From NCBI RefSeq assembly GCF_016026235.1, contig NZ_CP065613.1: DNA of 64,000 nucleotides, one strand, 5' to 3'. This DNA is from Escherichia coli (GTDB taxonomy: Bacteria; Pseudomonadota; Gammaproteobacteria; Enterobacterales; Enterobacteriaceae). The position numbers were made by a program, and so were the translations under genes. This document shows positions 78 to 11,791 of the stretch, piece after piece (position 1 is the first letter of the stretch; each line of letters begins with the position of its first letter). Under the pieces are notes generated by a model. That model was not told the DNA's origin, did no database searches, and worked only from the letters and a program-made list of their open reading frames with translations.

Positions 78-893
78 ATGACGGAAGTTAGACGGCGCGG
101 CAGGCCAGGACAGGCGGAGCCTGTGGCACAGAAGGGCGCACAGGCATTAGAGCGGGGAATTGCGATTCTGCAATATCTGGAAAAAAGTGGGGGAAGTTCG
201 TCGGTTAGCGATATTTCTCTCAATCTGGATTTGCCGCTCTCCACGACCTTTCGCTTGCTGAAGGTTTTACAGGCAGCGGATTTTGTCTATCAGGACAGTC
301 AGTTAGGCTGGTGGCATATAGGATTAGGTGTCTTTAACGTCGGTGCAGCGTACATCCATAACCGCGATGTCCTCTCCGTCGCCGGGCCGTTTATGCGCCG
401 CCTGATGTTACTTTCCGGCGAAACGGTCAATGTCGCGATCCGTAACGGCAATGAAGCGGTATTAATTGGTCAGTTAGAGTGTAAATCGATGGTCAGGATG
501 TGTGCTCCACTGGGCAGTCGTCTGCCACTGCATGCTTCCGGTGCGGGCAAAGCGCTGCTTTATCCGCTGGCGGAAGAGGAGTTGATGAGCATCATTCTGC
601 AAACCGGTTTGCAGCAGTTTACGCCAACTACGCTTGTGGATATGCCCACTCTGCTGAAGGACCTGGAACAAGCGCGTGAACTGGGCTATACCGTAGATAA
701 AGAAGAGCATGTTGTAGGTCTGAATTGCATAGCTTCAGCAATTTACGATGATGTAGGTAGCGTTGTTGCCGCTATCTCCATCTCCGGGCCTTCATCAAGA
801 CTGACAGAAGATCGTTTTGTCAGTCAGGGTGAGCTGGTCAGAGACACCGCCCGCGATATCAGCACGGCGTTGGGACTGAAAGCACATCCATAG
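78..893 (+). CDS. allR: IclR-family transcriptional repressor of allantoin/glyoxylate genes
   Basis: 271-aa ORF with IclR-type N-terminal HTH and C-terminal effector domain; position upstream of gcl matches K-12 synteny. Confidence 0.9.
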
Positions 894-905
894 TGTCTGT
901 CGCAT

Positions 906-930
906 CCCGCTCTGCGGAGCGGGTTTTTTT
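906..930 (+). terminator. Rho-independent terminator after allR
   Basis: GC hairpin cccgctc-tgcg-gagcggg followed by a T7 run, starting 13 nt after the allR stop. Confidence 0.7.
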
Positions 931-945
931 GACAAAATTTGAAAG

Positions 946-962
946 TTGGAAAATTTTTCCAA
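946..962. promoter_or_regulatory. Probable AllR operator in the gcl promoter
   Basis: Perfect palindrome TTGGAAAATTTTTCCAA about 20 bp upstream of the gcl start; AllR is known to bind an inverted repeat in the gcl promoter. Confidence 0.6.
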
Positions 963-982
963 TTAATAGGGGTAGGAATAAA

Positions 983-2764
983 ATGGCAAAAATGAGAGCC
1001 GTTGACGCGGCAATGTATGTGCTGGAGAAAGAAGGTATCACCACCGCCTTCGGCGTTCCGGGAGCTGCAATCAATCCGTTCTACTCAGCGATGCGTAAGC
1101 ACGGCGGTATTCGTCACATTCTGGCGCGTCATGTGGAAGGTGCTTCGCACATGGCGGAAGGTTATACCCGCGCAACGGCAGGGAATATCGGCGTATGTCT
1201 GGGGACTTCCGGTCCTGCGGGCACGGACATGATCACCGCGCTCTATTCCGCTTCTGCTGATTCCATTCCTATTCTGTGCATTACCGGCCAGGCACCGCGC
1301 GCCCGTCTGCATAAAGAAGATTTTCAGGCTGTTGATATTGAAGCAATTGCTAAACCGGTCAGCAAAATGGCGATTACAGTACGTGAAGCGGCGCTGGTGC
1401 CTCGCGTGCTGCAACAGGCATTTCACCTGATGCGTTCTGGTCGTCCGGGTCCGGTACTGGTGGATTTACCGTTCGACGTTCAGGTTGCGGAAATCGAGTT
1501 TGATCCTGATATGTACGAACCGCTGCCGGTCTACAAACCTGCTGCCAGCCGTATGCAGATCGAAAAAGCTGTAGAAATGTTAATCCAGGCCAAACGTCCG
1601 GTGATTGTTGCCGGGGGCGGGGTAATTAATGCTGACGCAGCTGCACTGTTACAACAGTTTGCTGAACTGACCAGCGTTCCGGTGATCCCAACGCTGATGG
1701 GCTGGGGCTGTATCCCGGACGATCATGAACTGATGGCCGGGATGGTGGGTCTGCAAACCGCGCATCGTTACGGTAACGCAACGTTGCTGGCGTCCGACAT
1801 GGTGTTTGGTATCGGTAACCGTTTTGCTAACCGTCATACCGGTTCGGTAGAGAAATACACCGAAGGGCGCAAAATCGTTCATATCGATATTGAGCCGACG
1901 CAAATTGGTCGCGTGCTGTGTCCGGATCTCGGCATTGTCTCTGATGCTAAAGCGGCGCTGACACTGCTGGTTGAAGTGGCGCAGGAGATGCAAAAAGCGG
2001 GTCGTCTGCCGTGTCGTAAAGAATGGGTCGCCGACTGCCAGCAGCGTAAACGCACTTTGCTGCGCAAAACCCACTTCGACAACGTGCCGGTGAAACCGCA
2101 GCGCGTGTATGAAGAGATGAACAAAGCCTTTGGTCGCGATGTTTGTTATGTCACCACCATTGGTCTGTCACAAATCGCTGCGGCACAAATGCTGCATGTC
2201 TTTAAAGACCGCCACTGGATCAACTGTGGTCAGGCTGGTCCGTTAGGCTGGACGATTCCGGCTGCGCTAGGGGTTTGTGCCGCTGATCCGAAACGCAATG
2301 TGGTGGCGATTTCTGGCGACTTTGACTTCCAGTTCCTGATTGAAGAGTTAGCTGTTGGCGCGCAGTTCAACATTCCGTACATCCATGTGCTGGTCAACAA
2401 CGCTTATCTGGGGCTGATTCGCCAGTCGCAGCGCGCGTTTGATATGGACTACTGCGTGCAACTCGCTTTCGAGAATATCAACTCCAGCGAAGTGAACGGT
2501 TACGGCGTCGACCACGTAAAAGTAGCGGAAGGTTTAGGTTGTAAAGCGATTCGCGTCTTCAAACCGGAAGATATTGCGCCAGCCTTTGAACAGGCGAAAG
2601 CCTTAATGGCGCAATATCGGGTACCGGTAGTCGTGGAAGTTATTCTCGAGCGTGTGACCAATATTTCGATGGGCAGCGAACTGGATAACGTCATGGAATT
2701 TGAAGATATCGCCGATAACGCAGCGGACGCACCGACTGAAACCTGCTTCATGCACTATGAATAA
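983..2764 (+). CDS. gcl: Glyoxylate carboligase (tartronate-semialdehyde synthase), ThDP enzyme
   Basis: 593 aa from the ATG ([18 protein letters not shown]); the track ORF from 893 is an in-frame upstream extension; ThDP-enzyme family features. Confidence 0.92.
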
Positions 2765-2776
2765 GGGAGATAAATA

Positions 2777-3553
2777 ATGTTACGTTTCTCTGCTAATTTA
2801 TCGATGTTATTTGGAGAATATGATTTTCTCGCCCGTTTTGAGAAAGCTGCGCAGTGTGGTTTTCGCGGCGTTGAATTTATGTTTCCTTATGACTACGACA
2901 TTGAAGAATTAAAACAGGTGCTGGCGAGTAATAAACTCGAACATACGCTGCACAATTTACCGGCGGGTGACTGGGCGGCGGGGGAGCGCGGTATTGCCTG
3001 TATTCCTGGCCGTGAAGAAGAGTTTCGGGATGGCGTAGCAGCAGCGATTCGTTATGCCCGTGCGCTGGGTAATAAAAAAATTAACTGTCTGGTCGGTAAA
3101 ACGCCGGCTGGTTTCAGCAGTGAACAGATTCACGCAACGCTTGTAGAAAACCTGCGTTATGCCGCGAATATGCTGATGAAAGAAGATATTTTATTACTGA
3201 TTGAACCTATTAACCATTTTGATATTCCTGGTTTCCATCTCACCGGAACTCGGCAGGCGCTGAAATTGATTGATGATGTTGGTTGCTGCAATTTGAAAAT
3301 TCAGTATGACATTTATCACATGCAGCGGATGGAAGGTGAATTAACCAACACCATGACTCAGTGGGCTGATAAAATTGGTCACCTGCAAATTGCCGATAAT
3401 CCGCATCGCGGCGAACCGGGAACCGGAGAAATTAATTATGATTATCTCTTTAAGGTAATCGAAAATTCTGACTACAACGGTTGGGTTGGGTGTGAATATA
3501 AACCCCAAACCACCACGGAAGCCGGTTTACGCTGGATGGATCCGTACCGTTAA
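2777..3553 (+). CDS. hyi: Hydroxypyruvate isomerase
   Basis: 258-aa ORF, xylose-isomerase-like TIM barrel; SD-like AGGGAGA upstream; synteny gcl-hyi-glxR. Confidence 0.9.
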   Translation: MLRFSANLSMLFGEYDFLARFEKAAQCGFRGVEFMFPYDYDIEELKQVLASNKLEHTLHNLPAGDWAAGERGIACIPGREEEFRDGVAAAIRYARALGNKKINCLVGKTPAGFSSEQIHATLVENLRYAANMLMKEDILLLIEPINHFDIPGFHLTGTRQALKLIDDVGCCNLKIQYDIYHMQRMEGELTNTMTQWADKIGHLQIADNPHRGEPGTGEINYDYLFKVIENSDYNGWVGCEYKPQTTTEAGLRWMDPYR

Positions 3554-3652
3554 AACGTAACGCTATTCAGACAATGCTTTTTTAGGCCGCTAAGTTGGCA
3601 GGGGATCGTGTTGTCTGAATTCAGGAAAAGCGAAATTTAAAAGAGGTTAATT

Positions 3653-4531
3653 ATGAAACTGGGATTTATTGGCTTAGGCATTATGGGTACACCGATGGCC
3701 ATTAATCTGGCGCGTGCCGGTCATCAATTACATGTCACGACCATTGGACCGGTTGCTGATGAATTACTGTCACTGGGTGCCGTCAGTGTTGAAACTGCTC
3801 GCCAGGTAACGGAAGCATCGGACATCATTTTTATTATGGTGCCGGACACACCTCAGGTTGAAGAAGTTCTGTTCGGTGAAAATGGTTGTACCAAAGCCTC
3901 GCTGAAGGGCAAAACCATTGTTGATATGAGCTCCATTTCCCCGATTGAAACTAAGCGTTTCGCTCGTCAGGTGAATGAACTGGGCGGCGATTATCTCGAT
4001 GCGCCAGTCTCCGGCGGTGAAATCGGTGCGCGTGAAGGGACGTTGTCGATTATGGTTGGCGGTGATGAAGCGGTATTTGAACGTGTTAAACCGCTGTTTG
4101 AACTGCTCGGTAAAAATATCACCCTCGTGGGCGGTAACGGCGATGGTCAAACCTGCAAAGTGGCAAATCAGATTATTGTGGCGCTCAATATTGAAGCGGT
4201 TTCTGAAGCCCTGCTATTTGCTTCAAAAGCCGGTGCAGACCCGGTACGTGTGCGCCAGGCGCTGATGGGCGGCTTTGCTTCCTCACGTATTCTGGAAGTT
4301 CACGGTGAGCGCATGATTAAACGCACCTTTAATCCAGGTTTCAAAATTGCGCTGCACCAGAAAGATCTCAACCTGGCACTGCAAAGTGCGAAAGCACTTG
4401 CGCTGAATCTGCCAAACACCGCGACCTGCCAGGAGTTATTTAATACCTGTGCGGCAAACGGTGGCAGCCAGTTGGATCACTCTGCGTTAGTGCAGGCGCT
4501 GGAATTAATGGCGAATCATAAACTGGCCTGA
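3653..4531 (+). CDS. glxR: Tartronate semialdehyde reductase (2-hydroxy-3-oxopropionate reductase)
   Basis: 292-aa ORF with N-terminal Rossmann motif GFIGLGIMG; synteny. Confidence 0.9.
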   Translation: MKLGFIGLGIMGTPMAINLARAGHQLHVTTIGPVADELLSLGAVSVETARQVTEASDIIFIMVPDTPQVEEVLFGENGCTKASLKGKTIVDMSSISPIETKRFARQVNELGGDYLDAPVSGGEIGAREGTLSIMVGGDEAVFERVKPLFELLGKNITLVGGNGDGQTCKVANQIIVALNIEAVSEALLFASKAGADPVRVRQALMGGFASSRILEVHGERMIKRTFNPGFKIALHQKDLNLALQSAKALALNLPNTATCQELFNTCAANGGSQLDHSALVQALELMANHKLA

Positions 4532-4699
4532 TACCCGCAATAAAAATGGCCGATATCAGAATATGAATCGGCCAGCAATATTAAAAAAGAAAGCAGCCAA
4601 AGATGTTGCTTCAGTATTAAAAATAATATTTTTATTTTATTTGTTCCTCATAGCTAGATTAAAACAACGTTATTCGATACGTGAAATTAAGAGGGATTT

Positions 4700-6154
4700 A
4701 TGGAACATCAGAGAAAACTATTCCAGCAACGCGGCTATAGCGAAGATCTATTGCCGAAAACGCAAAGCCAGCGGACCTGGAAAACATTTAACTATTTTAC
4801 CTTATGGATGGGTTCGGTTCATAACGTTCCCAATTATGTGATGGTCGGCGGCTTTTTTATTCTCGGCTTGTCTACCTTTAGTATTATGCTGGCAATTATC
4901 CTCAGCGCCTTTTTCATTGCCGCGGTAATGGTATTAAACGGCGCTGCGGGCAGTAAATACGGCGTACCGTTTGCCATGATCCTGCGTGCTTCTTACGGCG
5001 TACGTGGCGCACTGTTTCCCGGATTATTAAGAGGCGGTATTGCTGCCATTATGTGGTTTGGCCTGCAATGTTACGCGGGGTCACTGGCCTGCTTGATTCT
5101 GATTGGCAAAATCTGGCCGGGATTTTTAACTCTCGGTGGTGATTTCACGCTGTTAGGGCTTTCTCTACCGGGCTTAATTACTTTCTTACTCTTCTGGCTG
5201 GTCAACGTTGGTATAGGTTTTGGCGGTGGCAAAGTTTTAAATAAATTCACTGCCATTCTTAACCCGTGCATCTATATCGTTTTCGGCGGTATGGCGATTT
5301 GGGCGATTTCGCTGGTCGGGCTCGGTCCAATCTTTGACTACATTCCGAGCGGTATTCAGAAAGCAGAAAACAGTGGCTTCCTGTTCCTGGTGGTGATAAA
5401 CGCGGTAGTTGCGGTCTGGGCGGCACCGGCGGTGAGCGCATCCGACTTTACGCAAAACGCCCACTCGTTTCGTGAGCAAGCGCTGGGGCAAACGCTGGGT
5501 TTAGTTGTGGCCTATATTCTGTTTGCGGTCGCGGGGGTATGTATTATTGCCGGAGCCAGTATTCATTACGGCGCTGATACCTGGAACGTGCTGGATATTG
5601 TTCAGCGTTGGGACAGCTTGTTCGCCTCGTTCTTTGCGGTACTGGTTATTCTGATGACGACTATCTCCACTAACGCCACCGGTAATATTATTCCTGCCGG
5701 TTATCAGATTGCCGCTATTGCACCGACGAAACTGACTTATAAAAACGGCGTACTGATTGCCAGTATTATCAGCCTGCTGATCTGCCCGTGGAAATTAATG
5801 GAAAATCAGGACAGTATTTATCTGTTCCTCGATATTATCGGCGGAATGCTTGGTCCGGTAATTGGTGTCATGATGGCGCATTATTTTGTGGTGATGCGTG
5901 GGAAAATTAATCTTGATGAACTGTATACCGCACCTGGCGATTATAAATATTACGATAACGGTTTTAACCTCACTGCGTTTTCAGTAACTCTGGTGGCCGT
6001 TATTTTATCTCTTGGCGGTAAGTTTATTCCCTTTATGGAACCGTTATCGCGTGTTTCATGGTTTGTCGGCGTCATCGTCGCCTTTGCGGCCTACGCCTTA
6101 TTAAAGAAACGTACAACAGCAGAAAAAACAGGAGAGCAAAAAACCATAGGTTAA
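4700..6154 (+). CDS. ybbW: NCS1-family allantoin transporter
   Basis: 484-aa polytopic membrane ORF located between glxR and allB. Confidence 0.85.
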   Translation: MEHQRKLFQQRGYSEDLLPKTQSQRTWKTFNYFTLWMGSVHNVPNYVMVGGFFILGLSTFSIMLAIILSAFFIAAVMVLNGAAGSKYGVPFAMILRASYGVRGALFPGLLRGGIAAIMWFGLQCYAGSLACLILIGKIWPGFLTLGGDFTLLGLSLPGLITFLLFWLVNVGIGFGGGKVLNKFTAILNPCIYIVFGGMAIWAISLVGLGPIFDYIPSGIQKAENSGFLFLVVINAVVAVWAAPAVSASDFTQNAHSFREQALGQTLGLVVAYILFAVAGVCIIAGASIHYGADTWNVLDIVQRWDSLFASFFAVLVILMTTISTNATGNIIPAGYQIAAIAPTKLTYKNGVLIASIISLLICPWKLMENQDSIYLFLDIIGGMLGPVIGVMMAHYFVVMRGKINLDELYTAPGDYKYYDNGFNLTAFSVTLVAVILSLGGKFIPFMEPLSRVSWFVGVIVAFAAYALLKKRTTAEKTGEQKTIG

Positions 6155-6213
6155 TTAATCCCGATATTGAACATTGAGTTAAAAACCAATCTGTATTTTA
6201 CAAGGAGTTTGTT

Positions 6214-7575
6214 ATGTCTTTTGATTTAATCATTAAAAACGGCACCGTTATTTTAGAAAACGAAGCTCGCGTTGTAGATATCGCCGTTAAAGGCGGAAAA
6301 ATTGCTGCTATCGGTCAGGATCTGGGCGATGCAAAAGAAGTTATGGATGCGTCTGGTCTGGTGGTTTCGCCGGGCATGGTTGATGCGCACACCCATATTT
6401 CTGAACCGGGTCGTAGCCACTGGGAAGGTTATGAAACCGGTACTCGCGCAGCGGCAAAAGGTGGTATCACCACCATGATCGAAATGCCGCTCAACCAGCT
6501 GCCTGCAACGGTTGACCGCGCTTCAATTGAACTGAAGTTCGATGCCGCTAAAGGCAAGCTGACTATCGATGCGGCACAACTCGGTGGCCTGGTGTCTTAC
6601 AACATCGACCGTCTGCATGAGCTGGATGAAGTGGGCGTTGTCGGCTTCAAATGCTTCGTTGCGACCTGTGGCGATCGCGGTATCGACAACGACTTCCGTG
6701 ATGTAAACGACTGGCAGTTCTTCAAAGGTGCGCAGAAGCTGGGCGAACTGGGGCAGCCGGTGTTGGTGCACTGCGAAAACGCGCTGATCTGTGACGCACT
6801 GGGCGAAGAAGCGAAACGTGAAGGTCGCGTAACTGCCCATGACTATGTGGCTTCGCGTCCGGTATTTACCGAAGTGGAAGCGATTCGCCGCGTGCTGTAT
6901 CTGGCGAAAGTTGCCGGTTGCCGTCTGCACGTTTGCCATATCAGCAGCCCGGAAGGTGTTGAAGAAGTGACTCGTGCACGTCAGGAAGGTCAGGATGTTA
7001 CCTGTGAATCCTGCCCGCATTACTTTGTACTGGATACCGATCAGTTCGAAGAAATCGGCACTCTGGCGAAGTGTTCACCGCCGATCCGCGATCTGGAAAA
7101 CCAGAAAGGCATGTGGGAAAAACTGTTTAACGGTGAAATCGACTGCCTGGTTTCCGACCACTCACCATGCCCTCCGGAAATGAAAGCCGGCAACATCATG
7201 GAAGCATGGGGCGGTATTGCCGGTCTGCAAAACTGTATGGACGTGATGTTCGATGAAGCGGTACAGAAACGCGGAATGTCTCTGCCAATGTTCGGCAAAT
7301 TAATGGCGACTAACGCAGCAGATATTTTCGGTCTGCAGCAAAAAGGCCGTATCGCCCCAGGAAAAGATGCCGACTTCGTCTTCATTCAGCCGAATAGCAG
7401 CTATGTTCTTACCAATGACGATCTGGAATATCGCCACAAAGTCAGCCCGTATGTTGGCCGTACCATTGGCGCGCGTATCACGAAAACCATCTTACGTGGT
7501 GATGTGATTTACGACATCGAACAGGGCTTCCCTGTTGCGCCGAAAGGTCAATTTATCCTTAAACATCAGCAGTAA
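6214..7575 (+). CDS. allB: Allantoinase (cyclic amidohydrolase)
   Basis: 453-aa ORF with metal-binding DAHTH motif; synteny. Confidence 0.92.
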
Positions 7576-7625
7576 TCTGGCCCCTGCAATGCCCGTCCTT
7601 GCGGCGGGCATTCTCCGGTTAAGGT

Positions 7626-8933
7626 GTGTTTATGTTCAATTTTGCAGTCAGCCGCGAAAGCCTGTTATCAGGATTTCAGTGGTTTTTCTTTATTTTTTGC
7701 AACACGGTTGTGGTTCCTCCTACGCTACTTTCTGCTTTTCAGTTGCCGCAAAGTAGCCTGCTTACACTCACACAATATGCTTTTCTTGCTACCGCACTGG
7801 CCTGCTTCGCTCAGGCGTTCTGTGGCCATCGTCGCGCTATTATGGAAGGGCCGGGGGGCCTGTGGTGGGGAACCATCCTAACTATCACCCTTGGCGAAGC
7901 ATCGCGCGGGACACCGATCAACGATATCGCCACCAGCCTGGCAGTGGGGATTGCGCTCTCCGGCGTGCTGACGATGTTGATTGGTTTTAGCGGATTAGGC
8001 CATCGCCTGGCACGGTTATTTACGCCGTCGGTGATGGTCTTGTTTATGTTGATGCTGGGCGCACAGCTGACCACTATCTTTTTCAAAGGTATGCTCGGGC
8101 TGCCGTTTGGCATAGCCGACCCAAATTTTAAAATTCAGTTACCACCGTTCGCGCTCTCGGTGGCGGTGATGTGCCTGGTACTGGCGATGATTATTTTCCT
8201 GCCGCAACGTTTTGCCCGTTATGGCCTGCTGGTCGGTACGATAACCGGCTGGTTGTTGTGGTACTTTTGCTTTCCTTCTTCGCATTCGCTCTCCGGTGAG
8301 TTGCACTGGCAGTGGTTTCCGCTCGGCAGTGGCGGTGCTTTGTCGCCGGGAATTATTCTGACGGCGGTGATTACAGGTCTGGTAAATATCAGCAATACCT
8401 ACGGTGCGATTCGGGGCACGGATGTTTTTTATCCGCAGCAGGGCGCGGGGAATACGCGTTATCGTCGTAGCTTTGTGGCGACCGGATTTATGACACTGAT
8501 AACCATACCGCTGGCGGTAATTCCATTTTCACCGTTTGTTTCATCCATTGGTTTATTAACCCAGACTGGCGATTACACGCGGCGTTCGTTTATTTATGGC
8601 AGCGTTATTTGCCTGCTGGTGGCGCTGGTTCCTGCACTCACGCGACTGTTTTGCAGTATCCCTTTACCCGTGAGTAGTGCGGTCATGCTGGTTTCTTATC
8701 TGCCTTTACTCTTTTCCGCGCTGGTGTTTAGCCAGCAAATAACGTTTACCGCTCGCAATATTTATCGACTCGCATTGCCGTTATTTGTCGGCATATTTTT
8801 AATGGCATTACCGCCTGTGTATCTGCAAGACCTTCCATTAACGCTTCGTCCTCTGCTCAGTAACGGCTTATTGGTCGGGATTTTACTGGCTGTTCTTATG
8901 GATAACCTTATTCCGTGGGAACGCATCGAATAA
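7626..8933 (+). CDS. ybbY: Putative purine/uracil permease (NCS2 family)
   Basis: 435-aa hydrophobic ORF between allB and glxK; start may be the second Met at 7632. Confidence 0.8.
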   Translation: MFMFNFAVSRESLLSGFQWFFFIFCNTVVVPPTLLSAFQLPQSSLLTLTQYAFLATALACFAQAFCGHRRAIMEGPGGLWWGTILTITLGEASRGTPINDIATSLAVGIALSGVLTMLIGFSGLGHRLARLFTPSVMVLFMLMLGAQLTTIFFKGMLGLPFGIADPNFKIQLPPFALSVAVMCLVLAMIIFLPQRFARYGLLVGTITGWLLWYFCFPSSHSLSGELHWQWFPLGSGGALSPGIILTAVITGLVNISNTYGAIRGTDVFYPQQGAGNTRYRRSFVATGFMTLITIPLAVIPFSPFVSSIGLLTQTGDYTRRSFIYGSVICLLVALVPALTRLFCSIPLPVSSAVMLVSYLPLLFSALVFSQQITFTARNIYRLALPLFVGIFLMALPPVYLQDLPLTLRPLLSNGLLVGILLAVLMDNLIPWERIE

Positions 8934-8954
8934 TTTGTTGAAAAAGGATTGATA

Positions 8955-10100
8955 ATGAAGATTGTCATTGCGCCAGACTCTTTTAAAGAGAGCTTAAGTG
9001 CAGAAAAATGTTGTCAGGCAATTAAAGCCGGGTTTTCGACCCTCTTTCCCGATGCGCACTATATCTGTTTACCGATAGCGGATGGCGGCGAAGGGACAGT
9101 GGATGCGATGGTCGCCGCGACGGGCGGCAACATCGTGACACTTGAAGTCTGCGGGCCGATGGGCGAAAAAGTGAATGCTTTTTATGGCCTTACCGGCGAC
9201 GGGAAAACGGCGGTGATTGAGATGGCGGCAGCAAGTGGCCTGATGCTGGTCGCACCTGAAAAGCGTAATCCGTTGCTGGCCTCCAGTTTTGGTACGGGGG
9301 AGTTAATTCGTCATGCGCTGGATAACGGCATTCGCCATATTATTCTCGGCATTGGCGGCAGTGCGACGGTCGACGGCGGTATGGGCATGGCGCAGGCGCT
9401 TGGTGTGCGTTTTCTCGATGCCGACGGTCAGGTGCTGGCAGCTAACGGCGGCAATTTAGCGCGCGTGGCAAGCATTGAGATGGAGGAATGCGATCCGCGT
9501 CTGGCGAACTGCCATATTGAAGTAGCATGTGACGTTGATAACCCGCTGGTAGGGGCACGCGGCGCGGCGGCGGTGTTTGGCCCGCAAAAAGGGGCAACGC
9601 CGGAGATGGTCGAAGAGCTGGAACAGGGGCTGCAAAATTACGCCCGTGTTTTACAACAGCAAACTGAAATTAATGTCTGTCAGATGGCGGGCGGCGGCGC
9701 TGCGGGCGGTATGGGTATTGCGGCGGCGGTATTCCTCAATGCGGATATTAAACCGGGTATTGAGATTGTACTGCGGGCGGTCAACCTGGAGCAGGCGGTG
9801 CAGGGCGCAGCACTGGTGATCACAGGGGAAGGGCGCATCGACTCGCAAACGGCAGGCGGTAAAGCGCCGCTGGGCGTTGCGTCGGTGGCGAAGCAGTTTA
9901 ATGTACCGGTGATTGGGATTGCTGGCGTATTGGGTGATGGCGTGGAAGTGGTACACCAGTACGGCATTGATGCGGTATTCAGCATTTTGCCACGTCTGGC
10001 ACCTTTAGCCGAAGTGCTCGCCAGCGGTGAAACCAATCTCTTCAACAGCGCGCGAAATATTGCCTGCGCCATTAAAATAGGTCAGGGAATTAAAAACTGA
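8955..10100 (+). CDS. glxK: Glycerate 2-kinase
   Basis: 381 aa from [11 protein letters not shown] (track ORF starts 2 codons earlier at 8949); glycerate kinase family. Confidence 0.9.
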
Positions 10101-10924: not shown

Positions 10925-10933
10925 TGAATTTAC
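10925..10933. repeat. IS1 target-site duplication, right copy (tgaatttac)
   Basis: 9-bp direct repeat identical to 10148-10156. Confidence 0.8.
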
Positions 10934-11005
10934 TACAAAAAAAGCCACGGTATAAACCGTGGCAAAATCCAACATAGCTAAAAATAATCAGGCGAGTGGT
11001 ATGAC

Positions 11006-11791
11006 TTAAATCTCTACGTCGCGGTTGCAATCTTTCGAGTAAATATAGCTGAACGCTTCACCACGCCCTACGCCATAACCAGCCTGTAAAGAATAAGCGC
11101 CCATAAAGATGTAATCGCCTTTTTTCACCGGGATCCAGTTATTGTCGAGGTTATAAACCCCCTGACCGGAAAGAATATAGGCACCGTGTTCCTGAACGTG
11201 TGTTTCGATATAACCATGGCTGGCACTTGGTGCAAAAGAGAGGATATGCATGTTCATATCAAAACCTAACTCTTTGGGCAGAAAATCCAGCAGGATCACA
11301 TCATCCATACCTTCATAGTGAATGCGTTCCAGTTCGCTGGCATTGCCAGAAACCAGCCACGGTGCATGGCCTTCTACCGGAACATAGCGGCGCTTATATA
11401 AAAAGATTTGGCTGTCTTCGGACTGGGCGTTAACAAACGTCATTAAGGAGCCTGGCGGGCAATAAAGATAGCCACCTTCGCTTAAGGCAAATGTTTTGCC
11501 TTCGGCTTTGGCAGTGATATTTCCAGAGATCACATACAGGAACGTTTCAATGCCTTCGCCACCGAAGCCCTGTTGGTTGCCACCGTTTTGATGCAGTGTG
11601 ACCAGATAATCAACAAAAGAGGCACCCAGCTTTGGCGTGGAGAGGATTGTCGCGTCACAATTTTCAAAGCCCGGAATAATATTTTTTACCAGACCGTCTG
11701 GTGTTAACAGTGCGAAATTACCGTGTTTCACAATCGCACGGTTAGCCAGTAAATCATCGCGGTAACCGGTGACGTTATTTAAATATCCCAT
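11006..11791 (-). CDS. allE: (S)-ureidoglycine aminohydrolase (cupin)
   Basis: 261-aa ORF, last gene of the allD-allC-allE operon by synteny (K-12 ylbA). Confidence 0.88.
   Translation of the reverse strand: MGYLNNVTGYRDDLLANRAIVKHGNFALLTPDGLVKNIIPGFENCDATILSTPKLGASFVDYLVTLHQNGGNQQGFGGEGIETFLYVISGNITAKAEGKTFALSEGGYLYCPPGSLMTFVNAQSEDSQIFLYKRRYVPVEGHAPWLVSGNASELERIHYEGMDDVILLDFLPKELGFDMNMHILSFAPSASHGYIETHVQEHGAYILSGQGVYNLDNNWIPVKKGDYIFMGAYSLQAGYGVGRGEAFSYIYSKDCNRDVEI

Follow-up and report, generated by a model that had tools for sequence, protein, structure and literature searches.

In Escherichia coli K-12, DNA binding by the repressor AllR has reportedly been studied by EMSA and footprinting in work published by Rintoul et al. 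in 2002, Walker et al. in 2006 and Hasegawa et al. in 2008, the first of whom are said to have footprinted the protein on both operators and to have noted a conserved inverted repeat. The repressor binds in the control region of allS-allA and at the promoter of the gcl operon; glyoxylate serves as its inducer and allantoin as its corepressor (PMC12535856), and glyoxylate lowers the DNA binding of AllR (PMC11323563, citing Walker 2006). The protein is described as a factor of high specificity that has only very few sites in the genome; one of these lies upstream of gcl and shows in vivo occupancy in IPOD-HR data (bioRxiv 10.64898/2025.12.25.696506). Enrichment of AllR at allA has been shown by ChIP (PMC3459970), and allD-allF is reported to lack an AllR site (PMC12535856). 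A comparative study of the IclR family, citing Rintoul et al. 2002, gives the AllR motif as KTTGGAAWAWTWTTCCAAC (PMC8222616 Table 1), and the genes from gcl to glxK (983-10100 in the DNA analysed here) are described in the literature as one operon (PMC12535856, PMC10163214).

Here, we compare with these systems a palindrome at positions 946-962 of a 64-kb stretch of E. coli DNA, hereafter the window. A sequence-only reading had proposed it as the site through which AllR represses the gcl operon until relieved by glyoxylate. With high confidence, we identify the 17-mer as the operator through which AllR acts on the gcl promoter; AllR binding, release by glyoxylate and occupancy are taken from the literature, and the rest of this reading derives from sequence.

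The palindrome and its surroundings

Positions 946-962, read directly from the sequence, are TTGGAAAATTTTTCCAA. The repeat finder resolves them into two 8-nt arms, TTGGAAAA (946-953) and TTTTCCAA (955-962), which are 100% complementary across a 1-nt gap. The description as a perfect 17-bp palindrome thus holds in the odd-length sense, i.e., for two perfect arms around a centre base, T954, that is unable to self-pair. Its placement between the allR terminator and the gcl start codon, likewise part of the sequence-only reading, is borne out by the sequence itself, a terminator scan and the open reading frames (Table 1).

Curated family models and the RefSeq annotation of near-identical E. coli loci confirm the identity of both flanking genes. 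The upstream reading frame scores 619 bits against the NCBIfam equivalog NF007548 ('HTH-type transcriptional repressor AllR'; cut-off 406), its product is 100% identical to AllR of K-12 MG1655 over 271 aa, and residues 95-271, the C-terminal domain, match PDB 1tf1 (E 2e-110). The downstream reading frame scores 1280 bits against the glyoxylate carboligase equivalog TIGR01504. The first 3 kb of the window find a match in 5407 of the 5426 complete E. coli genomes (90-99.9% identity), annotated as allR, gcl and hyi, and the collinear locus of E. coli GF3-3 is annotated as gcl-hyi-glxR-allW-allB-ybbY-glxK, followed by allE/C/D and fdrA-ybcF. In the terminator scan, allR ends in a 7-bp stem with six GC pairs followed by TTTTTTT; in Serratia and Providencia, the sequence of this stem differs and its pairing is retained.

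Table 1. Coordinates of the site, its candidate promoter elements and the surrounding genes in the window.
Feature	Position	Strand	Description
allR	78..893	+	IclR-family repressor AllR, taken to recognise the palindrome
allR Rho-independent terminator	906..930	+	stem 906-923, T-run 924-930
Candidate gcl -35, TTGACA	929..934	+	putative; perfect consensus hexamer read from the sequence
AllR operator (very probable)	946..962	no strand	TTGGAAAA-T-TTTTCCAA
Candidate weak gcl -10, AATTTT	952..957	+	putative, placed by geometry only; 17 nt after TTGACA, inside the operator
gcl ribosome-binding region	968..976	+	GGGGTAGGA; nearly all other E. coli have GAGGTAGGA
gcl	983..2764	+	glyoxylate carboligase; the repressed operon begins with this gene; ATG at 983, 593-codon ORF
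hyi	2777-3553	+	ORF list and annotation of the collinear E. coli GF3-3 locus
glxR	3653-4531	+	as for hyi
allW/ybbW	4700-6154	+	as for hyi
allB	6214-7575	+	as for hyi
ybbY	7632-8933	+	as for hyi
glxK	8955-10100	+	as for hyi

Several other elements were observed around these genes. The K-12 small RNA AllZ (b4831; 533629-533863) corresponds to 696-930 (+) of the window. It is derived from the 3' UTR, comprising the last ~200 nt of allR plus the terminator, so that its 3' end is the terminator T-run that abuts the gcl promoter; RIL-seq and northern blotting both detected AllZ, and grcA has been proposed as a target (PMC8175672). The glxK-allE spacer contains, at 10933-10999 (+), a match to the Rfam family of the enterobacterial sRNA STnc480 (87 bits; gathering score 72). 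Insertion sequences occur at this locus in two other strains: E. coli MS 198-1 carries IS4 in the loop of the allR terminator (equivalent to ~912-920), just upstream of the gcl promoter, and E. coli FDAARGOS_943, the strain closest to the window, carries IS1 between gcl and hyi.

Taken alone, a palindrome of this size is not unusual. The window contains five perfect palindromes in which the arms are 8 nt or longer and the gap is 0-1, compared with 2.45 +/- 1.5 in 300 dinucleotide-preserving shuffles of the window, 9% of which contain five or more. The other four lie at 598-613, 4618-4634, 30014-30029 and 31537-31553: TGCAAACCGGTTTGCA falls within allR, TAAAAATAATATTTTTA within the 168-nt glxR-allW spacer, and the remaining two in a fimbrial region. 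The same spacer also holds a GGCCGAT...ATCGGCC hairpin (4549-4574), with neither a terminator nor a promoter called there. It is the specific sequence, the position and the conservation of the site at 946-962, not its size as a palindrome, that identify it as an operator. By compositional expectation, 1.2e-5 exact chance matches per window are expected for TTGGAAAANTTTTCCAA and 0.003 for TTGGAA-N5-TTCCAA. The site is the sole match to TTGGAAAANTTTTCCAA in the 64 kb, even with three mismatches allowed, and no further AllR site is found elsewhere in the window at that tolerance, which agrees with the literature report of no AllR site at allD-allF. Two candidate extra half-sites, both 83% complementary to the right arm, were rejected: TTGACAAAATTT (929-940) is unconserved outside E. 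coli, and AATGGCAAAAAT (982-993) is accounted for by the conserved codons for MAKM. A full-text literature search returned no match to the literal operator sequence.

Match to AllR, conservation and rival readings

Positions 945-963 of the window, GTTGGAAAATTTTTCCAAT, agree with the AllR consensus KTTGGAAWAWTWTTCCAAC at 18 of 19 positions, the sole mismatch being the last one (T for C). The site lies in the promoter region of a unit of the AllR regulon, 37 nt upstream of the gcl ATG and downstream of the allR terminator. In a gap-free alignment, the same columns of K-12 MG1655 read TTGGAAAAATTTTCCAA and differ only in the centre base. As this base is the symmetry axis, reading the 17-mer of the window on its opposite strand gives exactly the K-12 17-mer. 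Orthology to the K-12 site, the fit to the consensus and half-sites that are invariant in every allR-gcl locus examined together uphold the proposal that the palindrome is the AllR operator.

The conservation was assessed by scanning one genome per species with Gcl as a query, which gave 80 loci, 12 from Enterobacterales (Citrobacter, n = 3; Klebsiella, n = 2; Superficieibacter, n = 2; Serratia, n = 2; Izhakiella, Providencia and Pragia, one each) and 68 non-enterobacterial. In each of the 12 Enterobacterales loci, gcl is directly preceded by an allR orthologue (63-91% identity), and TTGGAA-N5-TTCCAA lies 31-66 nt before the gcl ATG. An allR homologue occurs within the 3-kb flanks of none of the 68 non-enterobacterial gcl loci, and TTGGAA-N5-TTCCAA is absent from the operator position of all loci without allR in these flanks. 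Among 15 aligned sequences from eight genera, variation within the palindrome is confined to the four central positions, columns 946-952 and 957-962 being invariant; TTGGAAA and TTCCAA are unchanged upstream of gcl in the 12 other Enterobacterales genomes, which represent seven genera. The mean column identity is 0.96 for the palindrome versus 0.63 for the preceding 15 nt and 0.70 for the following 20 nt, making the operator the best-conserved block of an allR-gcl intergenic region whose flanks diverge. Not a single insertion or deletion separates the terminator T-run from the operator in any of the 15 sequences. The same Enterobacterales orthologues of AllR hardly vary in the predicted helix-turn-helix segment; together with the invariant half-sites, this is the joint conservation that a regulator and its operator should show.

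Outside the Enterobacterales, boxes of a related type were observed in Halomonas and Billgrantia. Eight loci (L060, L067, L070-L072, L075, L079 and L081) have two or three TGGAAA-N3-TTTCCA-like boxes at ~40-175 nt upstream of gcl, which bracket a promoter-like TTGACGGC...TAGTCT stretch. No AllR homologue is present within the 3-kb flanks of the Halomonas/Billgrantia gcl loci, and in L072, the only one of them whose upstream genes were checked, these encode a TRAP transporter, an amidohydrolase and an FAA hydrolase. An unlinked regulator of the IclR/AllR type may therefore control gcl at these loci.

Among the alternatives, the reading that survives best is that the palindrome is an IclR box and that the paralogous, glyoxylate/pyruvate-sensing IclR is the main regulator or a cross-regulator of gcl. 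The IclR motif TGGAAATNATTTCCA does match 947-961 with two mismatches, and AllR reaches 248 bits with the IclR family model, short of its 380-bit cut-off, a score that shows the two proteins to be paralogues. However, both mismatches flank the central N (positions 7 and 9 of the 15-mer), where AllR sites have A/T in the opposite sense, and the AllR consensus fits the site better. A true IclR box would match TGGAAATNATTTCCA and lie upstream of aceB or iclR, whereas the neighbours here are allR and gcl. The strict co-occurrence of the site with a directly upstream allR in the enteric loci argues in the same direction, as does the literature, which places gcl under a highly specific AllR with very few genomic sites. 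Control by IclR is therefore very improbable.

Action at the RNA level, as a hairpin in the 5' leader of the gcl mRNA that affects translation or stability, deserves still less credence. RNA of 944-964 folds as a 9-bp stem of -7.1 kcal/mol, but this fold is weak (z = -1.3), 21 of 200 shuffles fold as well, and no Rfam family overlaps the palindrome. Moreover, the half-sites are invariant in sequence across genera and show no compensatory changes, a pattern of protein-DNA recognition rather than of a base-paired RNA stem, and part or all of the palindrome is probably upstream of the transcription start. Finally, a chance A/T-rich palindrome without a specific ligand in an A/T-rich promoter is hardly conceivable: the palindrome count in the shuffles given above would allow it, but the exact core, for which so few chance matches are expected, recurs at the same position in eight genera with diverging flanks and matches an independently derived transcription factor motif, and this cross-genus conservation excludes it.

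Variation within E. coli and the gcl promoter

Within E. coli, the centre base is a balanced A/T dimorphism. Of the 5426 genomes, 2467 (~46%) carry the T allele of the window, counted with its left flank, and 2511 (~46%) the A allele of K-12, and both states are present in other genera too. Most of the genomes counted with neither allele probably carry SNPs in the flank, as exemplified by ATCC 25922, where position 943 is G. The 13 E. coli sequences read, namely the window and 12 genomes, all keep an intact TGGAAAA-N-TTTTCCA core. A natural change from GT to CC at the equivalent of 945-946 was observed in E. coli 2012C-4227, where the outermost T946 of the left arm is altered and the 15-bp core is intact. 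Downstream of the operator, in the gcl leader and ribosome-binding region, G970 of the window is rare, giving AGGGG where nearly all E. coli have AGAGG (A970); over 926-975, a sequence identical to that of the window is present in only 3 of 5404 genomes.

The gcl promoter itself is bounded to 894-975 by an 82-bp K-12 fragment equivalent to these positions, which includes the operator and which drove lux as the gcl promoter (Pgcl) in a 2026 study; the low basal lux output was regarded by its authors as consistent with AllR-mediated repression (PMC13300388). The TTGACA hexamer at 929-934 lies within this fragment, and a hexamer of the TTG/TTA type occupies the same gap-free columns, 11 nt before the palindrome, in all 15 aligned sequences. 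A consensus promoter scan called no gcl promoter. It did not accept AATTTT, which matches at 3/6 positions, and its only hit, TTTCCA-17-TAAAAT (956-984), was rejected as the gcl promoter, since transcription would then start inside the gcl ORF. The alignment shows a GAGGTAG ribosome-binding block (968-974) to be conserved across enteric genera, which places the transcript start upstream of ~966 and thus the -10 and the start on or next to the palindrome. A RutR site has also been stated to lie upstream of the gcl operon (PMC10163214). Allowing up to three mismatches, no match to the RutR box TTGACCANNTGGTCAA is found near 900-1000, the nearest ones being at 11598 and 11845.

This geometry points to a likely case of classical steric repression, in which the promoter hexamers are putative and the occlusion is inferred from geometry. 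AllR would bind the inverted half-sites TTGGAAA and TTTCCAA via its winged helix-turn-helix, at a position between the likely -35 and the ribosome-binding site and over the -10/start region, and the bound protein would sterically block RNA polymerase at the promoter of gcl-hyi-glxR-allW-allB-ybbY-glxK. Glyoxylate would free AllR from the operator and de-repress the operon, and allantoin would strengthen the repression, as reported. Published K-12 reports support the corresponding part of the sequence-only reading, i.e., repression of the gcl operon by AllR and its relief by glyoxylate.

As the operator overlaps the probable -10 region, the two centre alleles may differ in promoter strength: the T allele gives GAAAAT at 949-954, where K-12 has GAAAAA. 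That the alleles do affect the basal or the induced activity of the gcl promoter, or the affinity of AllR via accessory bases, is in our view unlikely. If true, the dimorphism would represent a lineage-specific tuning of glyoxylate/allantoin catabolism and not a neutral flip of a symmetric site.

Comparison with described operators

The feature is already known as the gclP operator of AllR, and the window carries the allele found in roughly half of E. coli. A textbook repressor site was correctly recognised by a reader that saw the sequence only, and nothing new is added on allantoin or glyoxylate regulation. The invariance of the half-sites in at least eight genera, the dimorphism of the axis base and the indel-free spacing between T-run and operator are minor, unsurprising points that are possibly useful for motif models or biosensor design.

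Among the described operators, the IclR box of aceBAK/iclR shares with the window site an A/T-rich palindrome of the TGGAAA/TTTCCA type and a regulator that is a paralogous, glyoxylate-responsive repressor of the IclR family. Relative to TGGAAATNATTTCCA, the window site has two symmetric mismatches beside the centre, and the IclR-box regulon is a different one, unlinked to allR. The allS-allA operator, TTGGAAAAATATTCCAA in K-12 and GF3-3, has the same inverted repeat, TTGGAAAA...TTCCAA, and is bound by the same repressor. Its centre is AAATA as opposed to AATTT in the window, its arms are imperfect, and it controls two divergent promoters from a location just upstream of the window, outside it. 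The K-12 gclP operator corresponds most fully. In both, the site lies 53 nt after the allR stop and 37 nt before the gcl ATG, and both 8-nt arms as well as the regulator protein are identical. The differences comprise the centre base, T in the window and A in K-12, and two SNPs downstream of the operator, T963, which is common in E. coli, and the rare G970.
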